The notes below the pieces were generated by a model. It worked only from the letters and a program-made list of their open reading frames with translations, did no database searches and was not told the origin of the DNA. The position numbers and the translations under genes are program-made. From NCBI RefSeq assembly GCF_056712565.1, contig NZ_CM160072.1: DNA of 64,000 bases; one strand, written 5' to 3'. Positions 1 through 7,600 of the stretch are shown piece by piece. Within the stretch, counting starts at the first letter, position 1; each line of letters opens with the position of its first letter.

Positions 1-1125
1 GTTGGCACCGTTGAAATTGAGGATCTACGGGTTATTCCGGTTATTTTTCTGCCCGGAGTCATGGGTTCAAACCTTATGGATAAGAAAGGAAAATCCATCT
101 GGCGATATGATGACTCTATGAGTCTGATGGGCTGGTCACTACCTACATCAGGACCAAAAGAGAGGAAAAGATTATTGCATCCTGACAGGGTGGAGGTCGA
201 TAATCGTGGGAGAATTCCCGCACCTCCGGATGCCCAAGAAAAACTTATTCAGTTAGGTCAACAATATCCGGAGGACCCATCCGATAAAGAAGCAATGGAT
301 AATTACACTCAGGCAGTACGTGACATTTTGGATAATATAGAGCCAGAAGCGAAATTATTTGGTTCAAGAAAAGATCGCGGCTGGGGAGAGGTTGCAAATG
401 CTAGCTACGGTTCCTTTCTCGATGTATTACAAACAGCATTGTACCGGGACAAACCTACAAAGAAAGGTGAGACGTTAAGTGCGACCTACCAGCAACTACT
501 CGATGTACCTTTGGGTTTGGAGTATGGTCCTGACTCACTTGATGAAGAGTATCTTGAAGTCATAAGGTTGTATCAATTTCCGGTCCATGTCGTTGGCTAT
601 AACTGGCTTGGTTCTAATATGCTCTCAGCAATCAGACTACAAGAACAGATCAAGAAAATTGTTGGAGGCTATCAAAAACGAGGAATGAAATGCCATAAAG
701 TTATTCTGGTTACGCATTCAATGGGAGGACTAGTGGCAAGGTACTTTTCAGAGTGTCTTTCGGGGAATACGGATGTCTACGGTATTGTTCATGGCGTATT
801 ACCATCAATTGGTGCTGCGGCGACATATACCCGAATGAAACGTGGAACTGAAAACCCAGAGTCAAATCCGGAAGGGTATGTTATCAGTCATATCTTAGGT
901 CGTAATGCAGCTGAAATGGTAGCTGTTTTTTCCCAGTCGCCAGGACCAATGGAATTACTACCCATGAATGATTATGGTGAAGAGTGGCTTAATATTGTCG
1001 ATCGTGATGGTAGTACATTAACGCTCCCTAAAAATCTTCCCATTAAAGAAGGTATTGCCCCCGAAGAACGCACCTACGCTGAACTTTATCTAAATAGAGA
1101 AAATTGGTGGATGAGAATCTATTGA
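1..1125 (+). CDS. Lipase-like alpha/beta-hydrolase, putative T6SS phospholipase effector (Tle-like); 5'-partial, N-terminal part
   Basis: Frame is open from base 1 (VGTVEIEDLRVIPVIFLPGVMGS...), so the gene starts upstream of the window. GxSxG nucleophile elbow GHSMGG, Ser codon at 718-720. Stops at 1123-1125. Confidence 0.55.
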   Translation, partial: VGTVEIEDLRVIPVIFLPGVMGSNLMDKKGKSIWRYDDSMSLMGWSLPTSGPKERKRLLHPDRVEVDNRGRIPAPPDAQEKLIQLGQQYPEDPSDKEAMDNYTQAVRDILDNIEPEAKLFGSRKDRGWGEVANASYGSFLDVLQTALYRDKPTKKGETLSATYQQLLDVPLGLEYGPDSLDEEYLEVIRLYQFPVHVVGYNWLGSNMLSAIRLQEQIKKIVGGYQKRGMKCHKVILVTHSMGGLVARYFSECLSGNTDVYGIVHGVLPSIGAAATYTRMKRGTENPESNPEGYVISHILGRNAAEMVAVFSQSPGPMELLPMNDYGEEWLNIVDRDGSTLTLPKNLPIKEGIAPEERTYAELYLNRENWWMRIY

Positions 1126-1718
1126 ATCCTTTTAATACTTCATTAAATCAAAAGCAAATTGATACTGATTGGAATATATATGAAAATTTAATTACTGAGA
1201 GTGTCAATCCATTTCATAAGCAAATTGCTGGAAAATATCATATCAATACTTACTCTTTCTATGGGAGAGCGAAATTGGGAGATATTCCTGAAGCGCATTT
1301 AACGCAGGAAAATGTTCTTTGGAAAGGCTCATTATCAATGGGAAAAAAAAGTGATATATCTTTAGAACCAAAATTCATTGATGGTCGTCTTGATTTAAAT
1401 GAAGTTGGTAACATTAGAACTATTAAGGATGAATTTTCTCCTGAAGAACAGGCGTGGGAAATAAATACTGACGACGGTGATACATATGTTAAGATAGGAC
1501 AGCGTTTTACATTACGAGACTCTTGTGAAAACGGGGATGGTACAGTACCTCTTCGTGCAGGACAAATCGTACACAAGAACATCCTAGAGCGTTTGGCTGT
1601 ACAGGTTTCTCACGAGGCTGCTTATCGAAATCCCGTTAGTCAGGCATTTGCATTACGTTCTATTATAAAAATAGCTCAGGAGGTAAAAAAGGATGGTAAA
1701 ATGTCATACTCTGATTAA
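1104..1718 (+). CDS. C-terminal portion of the same lipase-like protein in the -1 frame (carries candidate Asp and His of the triad); probable frameshift partner
   Basis: Contains ...GDGTVPLRAGQ... and ...VSHEAAYRNP... downstream of the Ser motif. This frame opens right after a stop at 1095-1097, only about 25 nt before the upstream ORF ends. Confidence 0.4.
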   Translation: MVDENLLNPFNTSLNQKQIDTDWNIYENLITESVNPFHKQIAGKYHINTYSFYGRAKLGDIPEAHLTQENVLWKGSLSMGKKSDISLEPKFIDGRLDLNEVGNIRTIKDEFSPEEQAWEINTDDGDTYVKIGQRFTLRDSCENGDGTVPLRAGQIVHKNILERLAVQVSHEAAYRNPVSQAFALRSIIKIAQEVKKDGKMSYSD

Positions 1719-2526
1719 CCGTAGAAATAAATGTCTGCTGATTGTTTTTATAGTCCTTATTGGATGGATTATATTCAGACCTAAAGCATATACTTATTCA
1801 CTAAATGATAAAGAAAAAGAGATGCTCATAATGTTATCACAACATCCTGAAACTCGGTACTTTGGATTTTATTCCATAGAACTTCCGGCTGATTACAAAC
1901 CAACAGGAATGGTTATGTTCATACAAGGATCGGCGATGATCCCTGTAGAAACAAAGCTACAATATTATCCTCCTTTTCTGCAATATATGACACGATATGA
2001 GGCAGAACTAAAAAACACCTCAGCATTAGATCCACTGGATACGCCTTATTTGAAGCAAGTTCACCCACTAAGTCCACCTATGAATGGAGTCATTTTTGAA
2101 CGAATGAAAGCGAAATACACCCCAGATTTTGCACGAGTATTGGATGCATGGAAATGGGAAAATGGCGTTACGTTTTCAGTAAAAATAGAAGCTAAAGATG
2201 GTAGAGCAACCCGCTATGATGGAATTAGTAAGATTGCCGAATACAGTTATGGATATAATATTCCAGAAAAAAAAGTACAGTTACTTACTATTCTTTCAGG
2301 ACTACAACCTCGTGCAGATAACCAACCCCCATCAGAAAATAAATTGGCGATACAATATGCACAGGTTGACGCTTCACTACTTGGAGAGTATGAATTATCT
2401 GTAGATTATAAAAATAGCAATAATATTAAAATAAGTTTGCAGACGGATAATAATAGTTATATTGACTCATTATTAGATATAAGATATCCGAGTAATGGAA
2501 ACAGAGCATGGTATAACTCTATATAA
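1693..2526 (+). CDS. Hypothetical N-terminally membrane-anchored protein; candidate immunity or accessory protein for the lipase
   Basis: Strong RBS AGGAGG 9 nt upstream of ATG 1693. N-terminal hydrophobic segment CLLIVFIVLIGWIIF. Overlaps the lipase 3' end (operon coupling). AT-rich. Confidence 0.4.
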   Translation: MVKCHTLINRRNKCLLIVFIVLIGWIIFRPKAYTYSLNDKEKEMLIMLSQHPETRYFGFYSIELPADYKPTGMVMFIQGSAMIPVETKLQYYPPFLQYMTRYEAELKNTSALDPLDTPYLKQVHPLSPPMNGVIFERMKAKYTPDFARVLDAWKWENGVTFSVKIEAKDGRATRYDGISKIAEYSYGYNIPEKKVQLLTILSGLQPRADNQPPSENKLAIQYAQVDASLLGEYELSVDYKNSNNIKISLQTDNNSYIDSLLDIRYPSNGNRAWYNSI

Positions 2527-2788
2527 AGGTCGTAAGAAAATTAATGGTCTGGAGATATCTGAATGGTGGGTTCGTAAGCAAATAATGTTGAACTCAGAAC
2601 CATCACGAGATTATGAATTCAATCTGGCAATCCATGAGGATAAGAAAAACAACAAACAGTTATTAAAACTTGTTATGAATTACAGTGTTGACATCTTACA
2701 CGCTGACAATGCATTAACTGAACATGAACTGATGGCGCTGTGGGAAAGTATAACAGGGACAATTAAATATCATCCCACGCAGTGGTAA
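2495..2788 (+). CDS. Small hypothetical protein (97 aa), candidate immunity-family protein
   Basis: ORF directly follows and overlaps the previous gene; a degenerate paralogous copy lies immediately downstream. Confidence 0.35.
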   Translation: METEHGITLYKGRKKINGLEISEWWVRKQIMLNSEPSRDYEFNLAIHEDKKNNKQLLKLVMNYSVDILHADNALTEHELMALWESITGTIKYHPTQW

Positions 2789-2807
2789 AGCAGATAATCA
2801 GAACAGT

Positions 2808-3176
2808 CTGGAGATATCGGAATATACTCGTGGTACTTCAAGTTGCATGGTACGCACAAGGCCCTTGTCGGAAAGGGCTTGGGCTACAGAACTCATTTAC
2901 GTGCATCTTCAAGTTTATCGGGTATAGTAGATTAAACAGCAGATCACGCTAAGTACTGACCCGCTGCAAAATTACAGGTTTTATCTGACAGTCCATGATG
3001 ATAAAAAGAATGGTGGTCAACGGTTAATACTTACGATGACTTATAGCATCAGACCTTCTGAATTCAAAAGAAGTCTTAACCGAACATGAACTGGTTGCCG
3101 TGTTGCAGCAAATGACCAGTACGCTGAAATACCCCCTCTCACAAAACATAAAGATAATGGTATCTCATTTATATCA
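2808..3176 (+). pseudogene. Decayed, frameshifted duplicate of the 2495-2788 gene
   Basis: Translations FYLTVHDDKKNGGQRLILTMTYSI and DLLNSKEVLTEHELVAVLQQMTSTLKYP (different frames) align to EFNLAIHEDKKNNKQLLKLVMNYSV...DILHADNALTEHELMALWESITGTIKYH of the upstream ORF. The 5' end tctggagatatcggaat repeats tctggagatatctgaat at 2549. Confidence 0.45.
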
Positions 3177-3251
3177 ATGACCGGGAATAGGCAACTATAC
3201 TTTCATTTTTTAAATTATTTTCCTGTTGTAAATAAATCAGAGGTAAAAATT

Positions 3252-3512
3252 ATGCCTGGGATCGTTTGTTTAGGTGATGCCACGACTCATGGTGGTAAGG
3301 TGATTACCGCAACTTCAACGCTTTTTATCAATGGCATTCAGGTAGCTCTCGTAGGTGATCTGGTTTCCTGCCCAAAGCACGGCGTGAATCCCATACAAGA
3401 AGGTGACCCGACAGCGACGGAAAAAGGTCGTAATGTCGTTGTTAATCATTGCCAATGTGCATGTGGCTGTAGGGTTATCAGTTCTCAACCAGAAAATAGT
3501 ATCGAGTCATAA
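3252..3512 (+). CDS. Small PAAR-like protein (about 86 aa), candidate T6SS spike-tip protein
   Basis: RBS GAGG before ATG 3252. Gly/Cys/His-rich pattern (CLGDATTHGGKVI...VALVGDLVSCPKHG...HCQCACGC) typical of PAAR. The ORF track start at 3177 is probably too far upstream. Confidence 0.55.
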   Translation: MPGIVCLGDATTHGGKVITATSTLFINGIQVALVGDLVSCPKHGVNPIQEGDPTATEKGRNVVVNHCQCACGCRVISSQPENSIES

Positions 3513-3513
3513 T

Positions 3514-4650
3514 ATGGGATGGCCTGTACCCGATATTCCAGAAAGAAAAATGCTACCTGAGCCTGTTTATCGACGCTGGATTATATTATTAATATCTATG
3601 TTAACAGTTGGTACTCTGTTTATTTTATCGGTCTGGAATTCTGCGACATACTGGGATATTTTTATTTATGGCGTTCTGCCAATGCTGTTTCTTTGGCTAT
3701 GTTTGTTTGGTATTGCGCTGAACAAATATGAACAATCCGTTGCAGCCTGTATAAGTTGGGAGTCTGAAAGACAACAAGTTAAACAACTCTGGCAACACTG
3801 GAGCCAAAAACAACTGGCAATAGTTGGGAATGTTCTTTTTACACCGGAAGAAAAAGGCATGAGTGTTTTACTGGGGCCACAGGAAGAGATCCCTGCATAT
3901 CCTAAAAAGGCACGACCGTTATTCTCTGCATCCCGTTATTCTCTTTCGTCTATATTCCATGATATTCACCAGCAACTGACACAACAATTTCCTGATTATC
4001 GTCATTATCTACATACTATCTACGTATTACAGCCTGAGAAATGGCGTGGAGAAACCGTGAGACAGGCTATTTTCCATCAATGGGACTTAGTACCTGAACG
4101 GACCAATACTCTTAATCAAATCCAGTCTCTTTATGATGAAAGATTTGACGGTCTAATTCTGGTTGTTTGTTTACAAAACTGGCCGGAGAATAAACCTGAA
4201 GATACGAGTGAACTGGTATCAGCACAGCTTATCTCCTCATCGTCATTTGTACGGCAGCACCAGATACCCGTTATTGCTGGTCTGGGGCGTGTAATGCCAT
4301 TAGAACCCGAGGAGTTGGAGCATAATCTGGATGTGTTATTTGAATATAACCAATTGGATAACAAACAACTACAGCATGTCTGGGTCTCTGGTTTAGATGA
4401 GGGAACGATAGAAAACCTTATGCAGTATGCTGAACAACATCAATGGTCACTTCCTAAAAAACGGCCCCTACACATGATTGATCATTCCTTTGGCCCTACA
4501 GGAGAGTTTATTTTTCCTGTCTCTCTGGCAATGCTGTCAGAGGCTGCCAAAGAAACTGAACAAAATCATTTAATTATCTATCAGTCAGCACAGTATGCTC
4601 AGAAAAAGAGCCTTTGCCTGATTACCCGGAAGCTTTATTTAAGGACATGA
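3514..4650 (+). CDS. Inner-membrane protein of unknown function (N-terminal TM segments plus cytoplasmic domain), encoded between PAAR and tssM
   Basis: ATG 3514 lies 1 nt after the PAAR stop. Hydrophobic segments RRWIILLISMLTVGTLFILSVW and IFIYGVLPMLFLWLCLFGIAL. Track start at 3403 would overlap the PAAR gene. Confidence 0.5.
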   Translation: MGWPVPDIPERKMLPEPVYRRWIILLISMLTVGTLFILSVWNSATYWDIFIYGVLPMLFLWLCLFGIALNKYEQSVAACISWESERQQVKQLWQHWSQKQLAIVGNVLFTPEEKGMSVLLGPQEEIPAYPKKARPLFSASRYSLSSIFHDIHQQLTQQFPDYRHYLHTIYVLQPEKWRGETVRQAIFHQWDLVPERTNTLNQIQSLYDERFDGLILVVCLQNWPENKPEDTSELVSAQLISSSSFVRQHQIPVIAGLGRVMPLEPEELEHNLDVLFEYNQLDNKQLQHVWVSGLDEGTIENLMQYAEQHQWSLPKKRPLHMIDHSFGPTGEFIFPVSLAMLSEAAKETEQNHLIIYQSAQYAQKKSLCLITRKLYLRT

Positions 4651-4659
4651 GGAAAAATA

Positions 4660-7600
4660 ATGCATACTCAGCGTTACGGTTTCTGGGGATATTTAATTCT
4701 GATTATTGGTTTGGCAGGGATTTGCGCTCTGTTAATTATTATTAATCAGGATGTTCTGATAAAGAGCGGAGTGTCTGCTCGTCTGATATGGGGAATATGG
4801 GCGGGATTATTTTCTCTTTTTTTACTTGGGGTTGTGTGTTCGCCGTTCTGGTGGATCCGGAAGCAAAGGAAAGCGCAATTTATTTACAGACCAAAAAATT
4901 CGGCAGAAAACGACCAACCCGTATCTTCTCCATCAGAGGATATTTTAACCGATCTCAGCTCAAATATTCGGTTACGCTATGGTCCGTTCTGGCGGCGTAA
5001 AGTCCGCCTGCTGCTGGTGACCGGCGAGCCTGAAGAGGCAGAGGCCATCGCGCCGGGGCTGACCGGGCAACACTGGCTGGAGGGCGACCACACCGTGCTG
5101 ATATATGGCGGCAGGCCAACAGCGGAGCCTGATGTCACACTGCTGACCGCCTTAAAAAAACTGCGCCGCAGCCGTCCGCTGGACGGCATCATCTGGCCGC
5201 TGACAGAAGAACAAAGCCGCCAGACCGCACAACTCGACAAAGGCTGGCGCGAACTGATAAACGGCGGTAAGCGACTCGGTTTTCAGGCTCCACTCTATTT
5301 GTGGCAGGTCTGTGACGACGGTGATTATCAGACCGGACGCCCCCTGCAAAGCGTCGGCTGCCTGCTGCCGGAACGCTGTACCCCGGAACAACTGGCTGTA
5401 ATGCTGGAAGCACAAACCCTGCCGCTGACGGAACAGGGCATGTCGCAACTGCTGGCGGATAACCGCCATGATTTCCTGCTGCGTCTGGCCCATACCCTTG
5501 CAGAGCGGGGTATCGCTCACTGGCAAAGCGTTCTGAAACCGCTGCTGGCAGGCGGCGCATTTTCTTCCCTGCGCCTGCGTGGCCTGATGTTCAGCCCGCC
5601 GCTTGCCGCCGTGCCGGAGGCCGCACCTCATGCGTGGCTGCCGTCACCGGTCTGGGCGGGCGTGACGGGTGATAACGCGCGCGGGCGCACGGTGGGTTTT
5701 CCGTGGCTGCGTACCGCACTGATGTCCGCTGTCTGCGTGCTGGTGATATGGGGGGCCGGAATGACGACCTCGTTCTTCGCCAACCGCGCTCTTGTTCAGG
5801 AAACCGGTATCCAGACGGCGCGTGCGCTCGATACCCGCCTGCCGCTGGCAGAACAACTGGTGGCGCTGCATACCCTGCAGGGCGAACTGGAACGCCTGCA
5901 ATACCGTATCCGCGAAGGTGCGCCGTGGTATCAGCGTTTTGGCCTTGAACGTAACCAACAACTGCTCGCCGCCGCTTTTCCCGGCTATGCGCAGGCGGCA
6001 AACCGGCTGGTGCGCGACGTGGCCGTTGACCATCTGCAACAGCAACTTAATGCCTTTGTCGCGCTGCCGCCCAACAGTCCTCAGCGTACCGCCACCGGTG
6101 AACAACGCTATAAGCAGCTTAAGGCATTGCTGATGACTTCCCGCCCGGAAAAGGCCGACGCTGCCTTTTTCAGTACCACGCTGATGGCGGACGGTCTGCG
6201 CTACGAGAATATCCCGGAAGGTGTGCGGCAGAGCGTGTTGCCGTCACTGCTGACCTTCTGGACGGCGAACCTGCCGGAACACCCGCAGTGGAAAACATCG
6301 CCGCCACCGGAACTGACCGGCGCAGTGCGTAAAATCCTGCTGCGCCAGATTGGTGTGCGTAATGCCGAAAACACCCTCTACCAGAACGTGCTGCAACAGG
6401 TGTCCCGCAACTACGCCGATATGACGCTGGCGGACATGACCGGGGATACCCTCACCGAATCTCTTTTCAGTACGGAACAGACGGTGCCGGGGATGTTCAC
6501 CCGTCAGGCGTGGGAAGGACAGGTCAGGGAAGCCATCGAGCAGGTGGTGACGGCGCGGCGCGAGGAAATCGACTGGGTACTCAGCGACCGCCAGCAGGAT
6601 ACCTCTGCGGATATCTCGCCGGATACGCTGCGTAACCGTCTCACCTCACGCTACTTTACCGACTTTGCCGGAAGCTGGCTGGCGTTTCTCAACAGCATTC
6701 GCTGGAAAAAGGAAGACTCGCTCTCCGGCATTCTCGACCAGCTGACACTGATGGCCGATGCCCGTCAGTCGCCACTGATTGCGCTGACGGACACCCTCGC
6801 GTGGCAGGCGGCGGCAGGCAGGGAAAACCGTGGCCTGTCAGACTCGCTGGCGAAATCGGCACAGGAACTGTTTAACGGCAAGGAGAAAACGCCGCAGCAA
6901 TCCCGTGAAGGCAACGAGCCTGTCGGGCCGCTGGATAAAACCTTCGCGCCGCTACTGCGGTTGCTGGGCGATAAGGCAGGAGGCGGTGGTGGTGATACGC
7001 AACTCAGCCTGCAAACGTATCTGACCCGCGTCACCCGCGTGCGTCTCAAACTGCAACAGGTGACCAACGCCCCCGACCCGCAGGAGATGACCCAGCAACT
7101 GGCGCAGACGGTTTTACAGGGCAAAACCGTTGACCTCACCGACACCCGCGACTACGGACGGTTAATCGCCGCCAGTCTGGGCGAGGAATGGAGTGGCTTC
7201 GGTCAGGCGCTGTTCGTCCGCCCGGTGGAGCAGTCGTGGCGGCAGGTGCTGACGCCTGCGGCGGACAGCCTGAACCGTCAGTGGCAGCGGGCGATAGTCA
7301 GCCACTGGAATCAGGACTTCGCCGGGCGCTATCCGTTCAAAGCCTCACAAAACGATGCCTCTCTTCCCCTGCTGGCACAGTATCTGCGCGATGACGGGCG
7401 CATCAACCAGTTTATCGCCGCCAACCTTTCCGGTGTTCTGAAACGTGAAGGCCGCTACTGGGTGGCTGACGCCATGAACACGCAGGGGCTGACGGTTAAC
7501 CCGGACTTTATCCGCGCCCTGAACCGCCTGCGTGACGTGGCCGACACCGCCTTTGCCAGCGGCGATGCGGGAATACATTTCGAACTGCGGGCAAAACCGG

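Follow-up and report, generated by a model that had tools for sequence, protein, structure and literature searches.

What stands behind the lipase gene in T6SS-1, a type VI secretion system (T6SS) locus of Escherichia coli, and how did it come to be there? The question is raised by the first positions of a 64,000-nt stretch of contig NZ_CM160072.1 (hereafter the window, to which all coordinates refer), where a sequence-only reading had described a pair of small overlapping immunity-like genes followed by a degenerate tandem copy of the second. Positions 1-3251 are the effector-immunity cassette of the T6SS-1 locus. The two small open reading frames (ORFs) are one immunity gene, tli4 (1693-2788), inactivated or at least truncated by the insertion of a single nucleotide, and the decayed segment behind them (2789-3180, hereafter the relic) is very probably what is left, at the 3' end, of another tli4 paralogue, one of ancient divergence that once closed a tandem array. 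The locus is a new example of a well-known feature, the immunity-gene array with decayed members, and involves no new mechanism.

Both ORFs are present as described, on the + strand at 1693..2526 (277 amino acids, aa) and 2495..2788 (97 aa), with an overlap of 32 nt, but they do not form a gene pair: the genomes BCE049 and SW07099 carry this DNA as one uninterrupted ORF of 364 codons (a gene of 1,095 nt annotated as Tli4 family), of which the two are halves. Only two differences separate the window tli4 from that of BCE049, a substitution at 2227 and an extra T at 2480 (2480..2480, + strand), the latter being the insertion that splits the gene. Positions 1693-2478 correspond to native codons 1-262 and are followed by 15 out-of-frame codons, while the ATG of the 97-aa ORF is the internal Met268 of the intact protein and no gene start. 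For the intact 364-aa allele of BCE049, Pfam gives Tli4_N (PF18443) at residues 57-184 (E = 1.9e-18) and Tli4_C (PF18426) at residues 232-362 (E = 8.9e-12), and the frameshift after codon 262 interrupts the second of these domains. The N-terminal fragment, placed by alignment to BCE049 and by the Pfam matches of the intact allele, holds a hydrophobic anchor, the Tli4_N domain (PF18443 is also among its precomputed matches) and the start of Tli4_C; the C-terminal fragment comprises codons 268-364, that is, the distal two thirds of Tli4_C, according to translated alignment and Pfam. A hydrophobic N-terminal helix, roughly residues 14-27, is visible both in the sequence and in an AlphaFold2 model of the intact protein, the latter a low-confidence model built on a 19-sequence alignment (mean predicted local distance difference test score, pLDDT, 41.7, poor). 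A search of the PDB with phmmer and with a 19-sequence Tli4 profile gave no match to 4R1D chain B or to any other PDB chain. The proposal that the region makes up the immunity part of a T6SS effector-immunity module with a lipase as effector is supported.

The state of the locus in the population was followed in 5,426 complete E. coli genomes, with window positions 1-4700 as the query. Something similar is found in 185 of them, 139 cover at least 80% of the query and 135 carry the window-type cassette; the locus is at least 99% identical across 4.7 kb in 130 of these 135, and the chromosome of ATCC 11775, together with many other E. coli genomes, matches window 1-4700 at 100% identity. From their strain names, the carriers are presumably phylogroup B2 strains of the sequence type 95 (ST95) complex. 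The relic is present at 95% identity or more in all 135 genomes, the extra T of tli4 in 129, and a 10-bp deletion in the lipase gene, tle4, in 62, the gene being full-length (589 aa) in 73. This nesting suggests that the relic arose first, the tli4 frameshift second and the tle4 deletion last; moreover, since the window-type loci are near-identical, the frameshift is read as one inherited event. About 67 complete genomes (those of UTI89, IHE3034 and S88 included) combine a full-length tle4 with the frameshifted tli4, and no second tli4 was found elsewhere in the genomes with this combination. The occurrence of an intact effector gene beside a broken immunity gene in a major extraintestinal pathogenic lineage bears on the use of T6SS-1 against kin.

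Do the split genes still work? Either the 262-residue N-terminal fragment of Tli4 could suffice or the fragments could cooperate, in the window with a tle4 that is also split; this we regard as quite unlikely, although experimental evidence speaks for it. Ma et al. (2018; PMC5874247) reported Hcp1-dependent and Tle4-dependent killing of a tle4-tli4 deletion mutant in the avian pathogenic E. coli (APEC) strain TW-XM, whose genome is CP025328 (PMC12955052). This record (L008, APEC TW-XM / ExPEC XM, the latter for extraintestinal pathogenic E. coli) contains the same locus, 100.0% identical to window 1-4700 and of equal length, with both frameshifts exactly as in the window. PMC5874247 treats tle4 and tli4 of T6SS1 as a working pair and, in its accessible portion, leaves the downstream relic unmentioned, whereas in the genome each of the two genes is split into two ORFs. 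The killing assays imply that the split genes still work, and an activity reported for a strain with both genes frameshifted weighs against inactivation, the non-function of the truncated Tli4 being a prediction from sequence; in turn, the two lesions bear on how the published TW-XM experiments are to be read. In ST95-type strains such as TW-XM and ATCC 11775, the N-terminal Tli4 fragment, or both fragments, may protect, and the Tle4 halves may be deliverable; if so, a T6SS effector-immunity pair tolerates splitting inside its domains. The persistence of the lesion can also be cited in favour, as the frameshift is retained in 129 of the 135 genomes, whose two half-ORFs are otherwise undamaged, about 67 of them keep a full-length tle4, and these genomes hold no second tli4 copy; with the locus at least 99% identical in 130 of the 135, however, such persistence reduces to one inherited event if the carriers are one lineage. 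Furthermore, the break lies inside Tli4_C. In Pseudomonas aeruginosa the immunity protein contributes most of the binding energy through a groove in its domain II (PMC5611513), domain II being assumed here to correspond to Tli4_C. The 97-aa fragment is without an export signal, whereas Tli4 acts in the periplasm, and decay has gone further in some carriers, where a deletion variant and insertion sequence (IS) insertions are seen. Programmed ribosomal frameshifting was rejected, as no slippery motif or homopolymer run can be read at 2476-2490 or 1095-1115. A single tli4 gene, inactivated or at least truncated, is thus preferred for 1693-2788.

The segment behind this gene resembles the 97-aa product in two frames, as the sequence-only reading had noticed, with 45% identity over 71 codons and a combined E-value of 2.8e-14. 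By tblastn, residues 26-65 of the 97-aa protein match 2931-3050 (45% identity over 40 aa) in an ungapped alignment collinear with the next block, in which residues 66-96 match 3052-3144 in the next frame (45% over 31 aa). When the downstream segment was shuffled 500 times, the DNA local score was 32 vs 10.8 +/- 1.4 for the shuffles (z = 14.6), the best-frame protein score 104 vs 27.3 +/- 3.9 (z = 19.7) and that of the two best frames added together 180 vs 50.8 +/- 5.7 (z = 22.8), all of them far above the shuffled background, so that the proposed relatedness of the two segments is upheld. The internal stops were likewise found, as TAG TAG at 2925-2930, together with the switch of frame at 3051.

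Several parts can be distinguished in the relic, all on the + strand. The first is a post-stop flank, AGCAGATAATCAGAACAGT (2789..2807), which is common to the spacers of tli4 arrays elsewhere and is identical in 20 of 22 positions to the flank behind tli4 in Phytobacter (z = 7.5). It is followed by an 18-nt near-repeat (2806..2823) of 2547-2564, with 17 of 18 positions identical, which corresponds to the NGLEISEW motif of tli4 and marks the left edge of the tli4-like sequence, and by 107 nt (2824..2930), with no significant match, that end in the two TAG codons. Block A (2931..3050) contains 40 codons equivalent to Tli4 residues 293-332, as judged from tblastn (45-50% identity) and the codon-position pattern; block B (3052..3144) contains 31 codons equivalent to residues 333-363 (tblastn, 45-52% identity) and is shifted by +1 relative to block A, with an extra base at 3051. 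An out-of-register tail (3145..3180), delimited by reading of the sequence and by alignment to the spacer of the NGF1 locus described below, leads to a TGA at 3178-3180. The tail holds a vestigial stop with its flank, TAAAGATAAT (3149-3158), the counterpart of which after the window tli4 is TAAAGCAGATAAT; the same motif follows each tli4 in NGF1 and Phytobacter. Of the copy of about 370 bp first proposed, homology is therefore found for 2931-3144 (about 214 nt) and for the 18-nt near-repeat, but not for the 107 nt between them, which match nothing.

A recent tandem duplication of the 3' part of the immunity gene (the former second gene), with a copy that decayed neutrally in place, would place the relic directly behind the gene it resembles, would give it the 17/18 repeat of 2547-2564 at its start and would leave a similar flank after the stop, all of which is observed. 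The divergence of the two sequences nevertheless renders such an origin improbable. The relic and the neighbouring tli4 share just 57% nucleotide identity, and their differences at codon positions 1, 2 and 3 number 29, 17 and 45, with a proportion of synonymous differences (pS) of 0.89, that is, saturated, vs a nonsynonymous one (pN) of 0.30, whereas neutral change would have spread evenly. The third-position bias and the saturation of the synonymous sites mean that most of the divergence arose while both sequences were coding genes under selection, the relic as a working gene distinct from its neighbour, and past purifying selection has left its signature in the relic. Decay in place would also leave more stops and indels than are seen in the 71 aligned codons, which show one frameshift and no stops. 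Moreover, the relic is not especially close to its neighbour: the C-terminal 71 residues of every known Tli4 examined are about equally close to it (45-52%), the best among 124 retrieved proteins sharing 37 of 71 residues, and apparently homologous relics exist in diverged cassettes. What remains of the degenerate copy is related to the immunity gene and has decayed, but it did not arise by duplication of the second gene with decay on the spot, as the 29/17/45 pattern and the saturated pS indicate.

The array to which a diverged paralogue would have belonged is illustrated by related loci, where the tandem immunity arrays anticipated by the sequence-only reading do occur. The NGF1-type cassette, found in 50 E. 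coli genomes, has two full tli4 genes (372 and 367 aa); compared with the window, tle4 and the first tli4 show 73% nucleotide identity and the second tli4 75%. A scan of genome contigs gave one confirmed locus, in Phytobacter diazotrophicus, where a shortened tle4 and a pair of complete tli4 genes (368 and about 372 aa) are followed by the same PAAR, 380-aa and TssM genes; this locus is an immunity array that has lost its effector. The window itself has one full-length tli4, the frameshifted one, plus the relic. The spacers between the tli4 genes (NGF1, L006 5795-5890; Phytobacter, L012 4032-4127) repeat the final 55 to 110 nt of tle4, to whose 3' end they are near-identical as counted from the printed sequences, and include the overlapping start of tli4, so the unit of the array is the tle4 3' end plus tli4. 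In the window the first 19-22 nt of such a spacer are recognisable (z = 7.5), and the next 107 nt have no significant match. As side observations, just the last 122 tle4 codons stand upstream of the two intact tli4 genes in Phytobacter diazotrophicus (L012 2579-2947), and in Z1323MEC0001 (L007 3242-5857) an IS66 element splits the second tli4.

In both related loci the DNA that separates the final tli4 from PAAR likewise contains a tli4 3' relic, though a shorter one. That of NGF1 is about 60 nt long and encodes SSVLKYPPQNIKIAATHLYQ, with TSTLKYPLSQNIKIMVSHLYQ as its window counterpart; that of Phytobacter consists of 26 codons with a stop among them, SVDLLNLEQSLTKNTLVAL*QHITET, with a global DNA alignment at z = 3.7. 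The presence of homologous short relics at the same spot in an E. coli cassette divergent to 73-77% and in Phytobacter indicates that the relic is old. As the simplest history we infer that the final tli4 of an ancestral array disappeared through deletions that differ in extent among lineages. The further paralogue of the window would have lost its first 290 or so codons by deletion, and its remainder would have acquired two stop codons and at least one frameshift while evolving in a neutral-like manner; the proposed order of events would then run from the array through the loss of its last copy and the tli4 frameshift to the 10-bp tle4 deletion.

Several observations weigh against a separate paralogue as the source of the relic. 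No intact parent gene has been found, the full-length third paralogue being deduced from the stop-plus-flank and from arrays elsewhere: a DNA search gave no match elsewhere in E. coli genomes, a word-indexed search of 5.8 billion proteins gave no shared 5-mers, and a full HMMER search of 1.84 billion cluster representatives gave only 5 matches, the best non-self match being the 97-aa fragment. The stitched translation of the relic has no Pfam match even at E <= 10, and the link of 2806-3180 to Tli4_C is made by alignment to E. coli Tli4 proteins (E ~1e-14) and not by a profile. The NGF1 and Phytobacter relics are apparently orthologous to that of the window, as far as short alignments (14/21 aa and 13/26 aa, respectively) can tell. 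Finally, the 107 nt at 2824-2930 lack a counterpart among the known Tli4 proteins, none of which carries 35 additional codons there.

These 107 nt have been compared in several ways. Six-frame comparison with Tle4 and Tli4 gave nothing significant; a piece of Tle4 was rejected, as the best 28-aa match (Tle4 residues 150-177) has a score reached by 2.7% of shuffles. DNA comparison with tle4 3' ends and array spacers was not significant, the best match being 12/13 with the Phytobacter spacer (p ~0.07), and a multiple alignment sets the segment collinear with the array spacers and the tle4 3' end. No second copy was found in the window or elsewhere in E. coli genomes, nor any Rfam match, nor any protein homologue beyond an ORF call on the same DNA; for 2806-2930, the sole HMMER match is that ORF call (P0001), a chimera on a deletion variant of the same locus. 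The segment may be a decayed spacer, a tle4 3' relic or an insertion within the lost paralogue. It contains a small hairpin (GCCCTT at 2861-2866, AAGGGC at 2873-2878).

That the relic region has been kept for a function of its own, such as a promoter or leader for PAAR-tssM, a small RNA or a small protein, is scarcely credible. In its favour, each of the three locus types examined has some relic, longer or shorter, between its final tli4 and PAAR, and conservation is good over the 70 nt that directly precede PAAR. Against it, the relic varies in length (about 390 nt for the window, about 60 nt for the NGF1 type and about 26 recognisable codons for Phytobacter), no promoter-like site occurs on the + strand in 2789-3251, the counts being those expected from shuffling, 2400-3400 gives no Rfam match, the divergence of the relic matches that of synonymous sites and an IS3 insertion inside it is tolerated. 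Promoter and terminator sites in 2400-3400 are at background level, and the relic divergence between two window-type lineages, 1.7%, equals that of the third codon positions of tle4. The IS3-family element lies at about window position 3034 in MS8345 (L011 4301-5513); B20123 has the same break in its match to the relic, the break alone being seen. We infer that the relic is a passively carried pseudogene fragment without present function.

Recombination among the array members is evidently frequent, to judge by the mosaic structure of their sequences. NGF1 tli4a and tli4b (L006 4676-6994) are 93-99% identical in the first 300 nt and 56-76% in the middle (roughly codons 105-195), while the two Phytobacter copies (L012 2925-5246) are 100% identical in the 3' half. 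The last 250 nt of the window tli4 are 96-97% identical to NGF1 tli4b, the rest 54-84%; the switch from densely mismatched to 96-97% identical sequence falls between 2533 and 2563, an interval that spans most of the motif copy at 2547-2564. Furthermore, in two independent metagenome contigs (L009 2884-3057, L010 20-193) a 259-nt deletion between the 18-nt near-repeats joins 2564 to 2806, so that the beginning of the 97-aa ORF runs into the relic and gives the chimeric 57-aa ORF mentioned above. Three independent features, the left edge of the relic, the similarity switch and the deletion, thus lie at the motif GTCTGGAGATATC(T/G)GAAT or in an interval that contains it, and from these three cases the 18-nt motif (2547-2564, repeated at 2806-2823) would be a preferred site for the exchange or deletion of tli4 C-terminal segments. 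That either the split genes still work or, as the milder proposition, this motif is a preferred recombination site remains, both taken jointly, unlikely, if slightly less so than the function of the split genes considered by itself.

Compared with known systems, the locus is closest to Tle4-Tli4 of P. aeruginosa (TplE-TplEi, PA1510/PA1509; PDB 4R1D), with a homologous effector (E = 4e-44), both Pfam Tli4 domains in the E. coli immunity gene and an immunity gene directly after, and overlapping, the effector gene. It differs in that the E. coli Tli4 is too diverged to match the solved Tli4 by sequence or profile, and in that here the immunity gene is frameshifted, the effector gene has undergone a 10-bp deletion and behind them comes the relic of another tli4. 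Immunity arrays of Vibrio cholerae have been explained by a model in which effector-immunity modules displace one another in turn (Kirchberger et al. 2017, PMC5361080). As in those arrays, several immunity paralogues lie downstream of one effector, and a copy of the effector 3' end precedes each extra tli4 in NGF1-type E. coli and Phytobacter, which is the footprint expected from the addition of effector-immunity units by displacement or duplication. Unlike the V. cholerae model, no effector 3' relic is demonstrable in the window itself. Orphan immunity genes in V. cholerae are usually intact and of different families, whereas here the paralogues are of one family, with gene-conversion mosaics, and the last member is a truncated pseudogene, the downstream copy of the window being without about 290 codons and having two stops and one frameshift. 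Displaced 3' gene fragments also accumulate downstream of Rhs and contact-dependent inhibition (CDI) loci, and share short motifs usable as recombination sites; the displaced pieces there are toxin C-terminal tips and immunity genes, and here the 3' end of an immunity gene only. The locus thus records how T6SS immunity arrays of Enterobacteriaceae grow, swap segments and decay.

The lipase is, by its sequence, a homologue of the Tle4 family: the full-length IHE3034 allele (589 aa) matches PDB 4r1d_A, the P. aeruginosa Tle4, over residues 138-460 (E = 4e-44), while its precomputed Pfam match, to PGAP1, is weak. The gene, which begins 41 nt upstream of window position 1, is split in the window into ORFs of 388 aa and 203 aa (window 1-1718). 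The 5' fragment (1..1125, + strand), assigned from its ORF and the homology of the intact IHE3034 allele, bears the HSMGG nucleophile motif; the 3' fragment (1104..1718, + strand), assigned from ORF, annotation and alignment, bears GDGTVP and SHEAAY, which from lipase motifs probably provide the catalytic Asp and His, respectively. As the lesion between them, the second of two copies of a 10-bp direct repeat, AAATTGGTGG, has been lost; the lone remaining copy lies at 1101..1110 (+ strand), as seen by alignment to IHE3034 and BCE049, and the loss shifts the frame of tle4. The start of tli4 (1693) overlaps the end of tle4 (1718).

The RefSeq annotation of a record identical to window 1-4700 lists in order tssH, a DUF2345 (VgrG) gene, a two-piece esterase/lipase, a "hypothetical protein" of 277 aa, a "T6SS immunity protein Tli4 family protein" of 97 aa, 463 nt without features, and then PAAR, 378-aa and ImcF-related (TssM) genes. 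The order at the locus is VgrG, tle4, tli4, relic, PAAR, KPHS_23130-family gene and tssM. Present in over 100 RefSeq E. coli genomes, the 277-aa and 97-aa entries are the halves of one gene, and the 463-nt "intergenic" region contains a tli4 pseudogene fragment. NCBIfam has no family for the intact Tli4, either fragment, the relic, Tle4 or the downstream 378-aa protein.

The PAAR-domain gene (3252..3512, + strand, from annotation) forms the right border of the variable effector-immunity cassette and is 100% identical between the window and NGF1, whereas the effector-immunity modules share only 73-75% nucleotide identity. On the other side, the first 300 nt or so of tle4 (window 1-300 vs the NGF1-type locus, L006 2953-3250) are 97-98% identical and the remainder of the gene 59-89%, which points to a sharp left border of the exchangeable cassette within tle4, on the VgrG side. 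With near-identity at both ends, the variable cassette begins within tle4 and ends just short of PAAR, and the relic is carried along in it. Between the relic and the PAAR gene lies a spacer with a Shine-Dalgarno sequence (3181..3251, + strand), recognised from sequence, annotation and the NGF1 comparison. The annotated PAAR start is ATG 3252, preceded by GAGG, and a 111-aa ORF at 3177-3512 represents the PAAR gene with a spurious upstream extension that overlaps the end of the relic.

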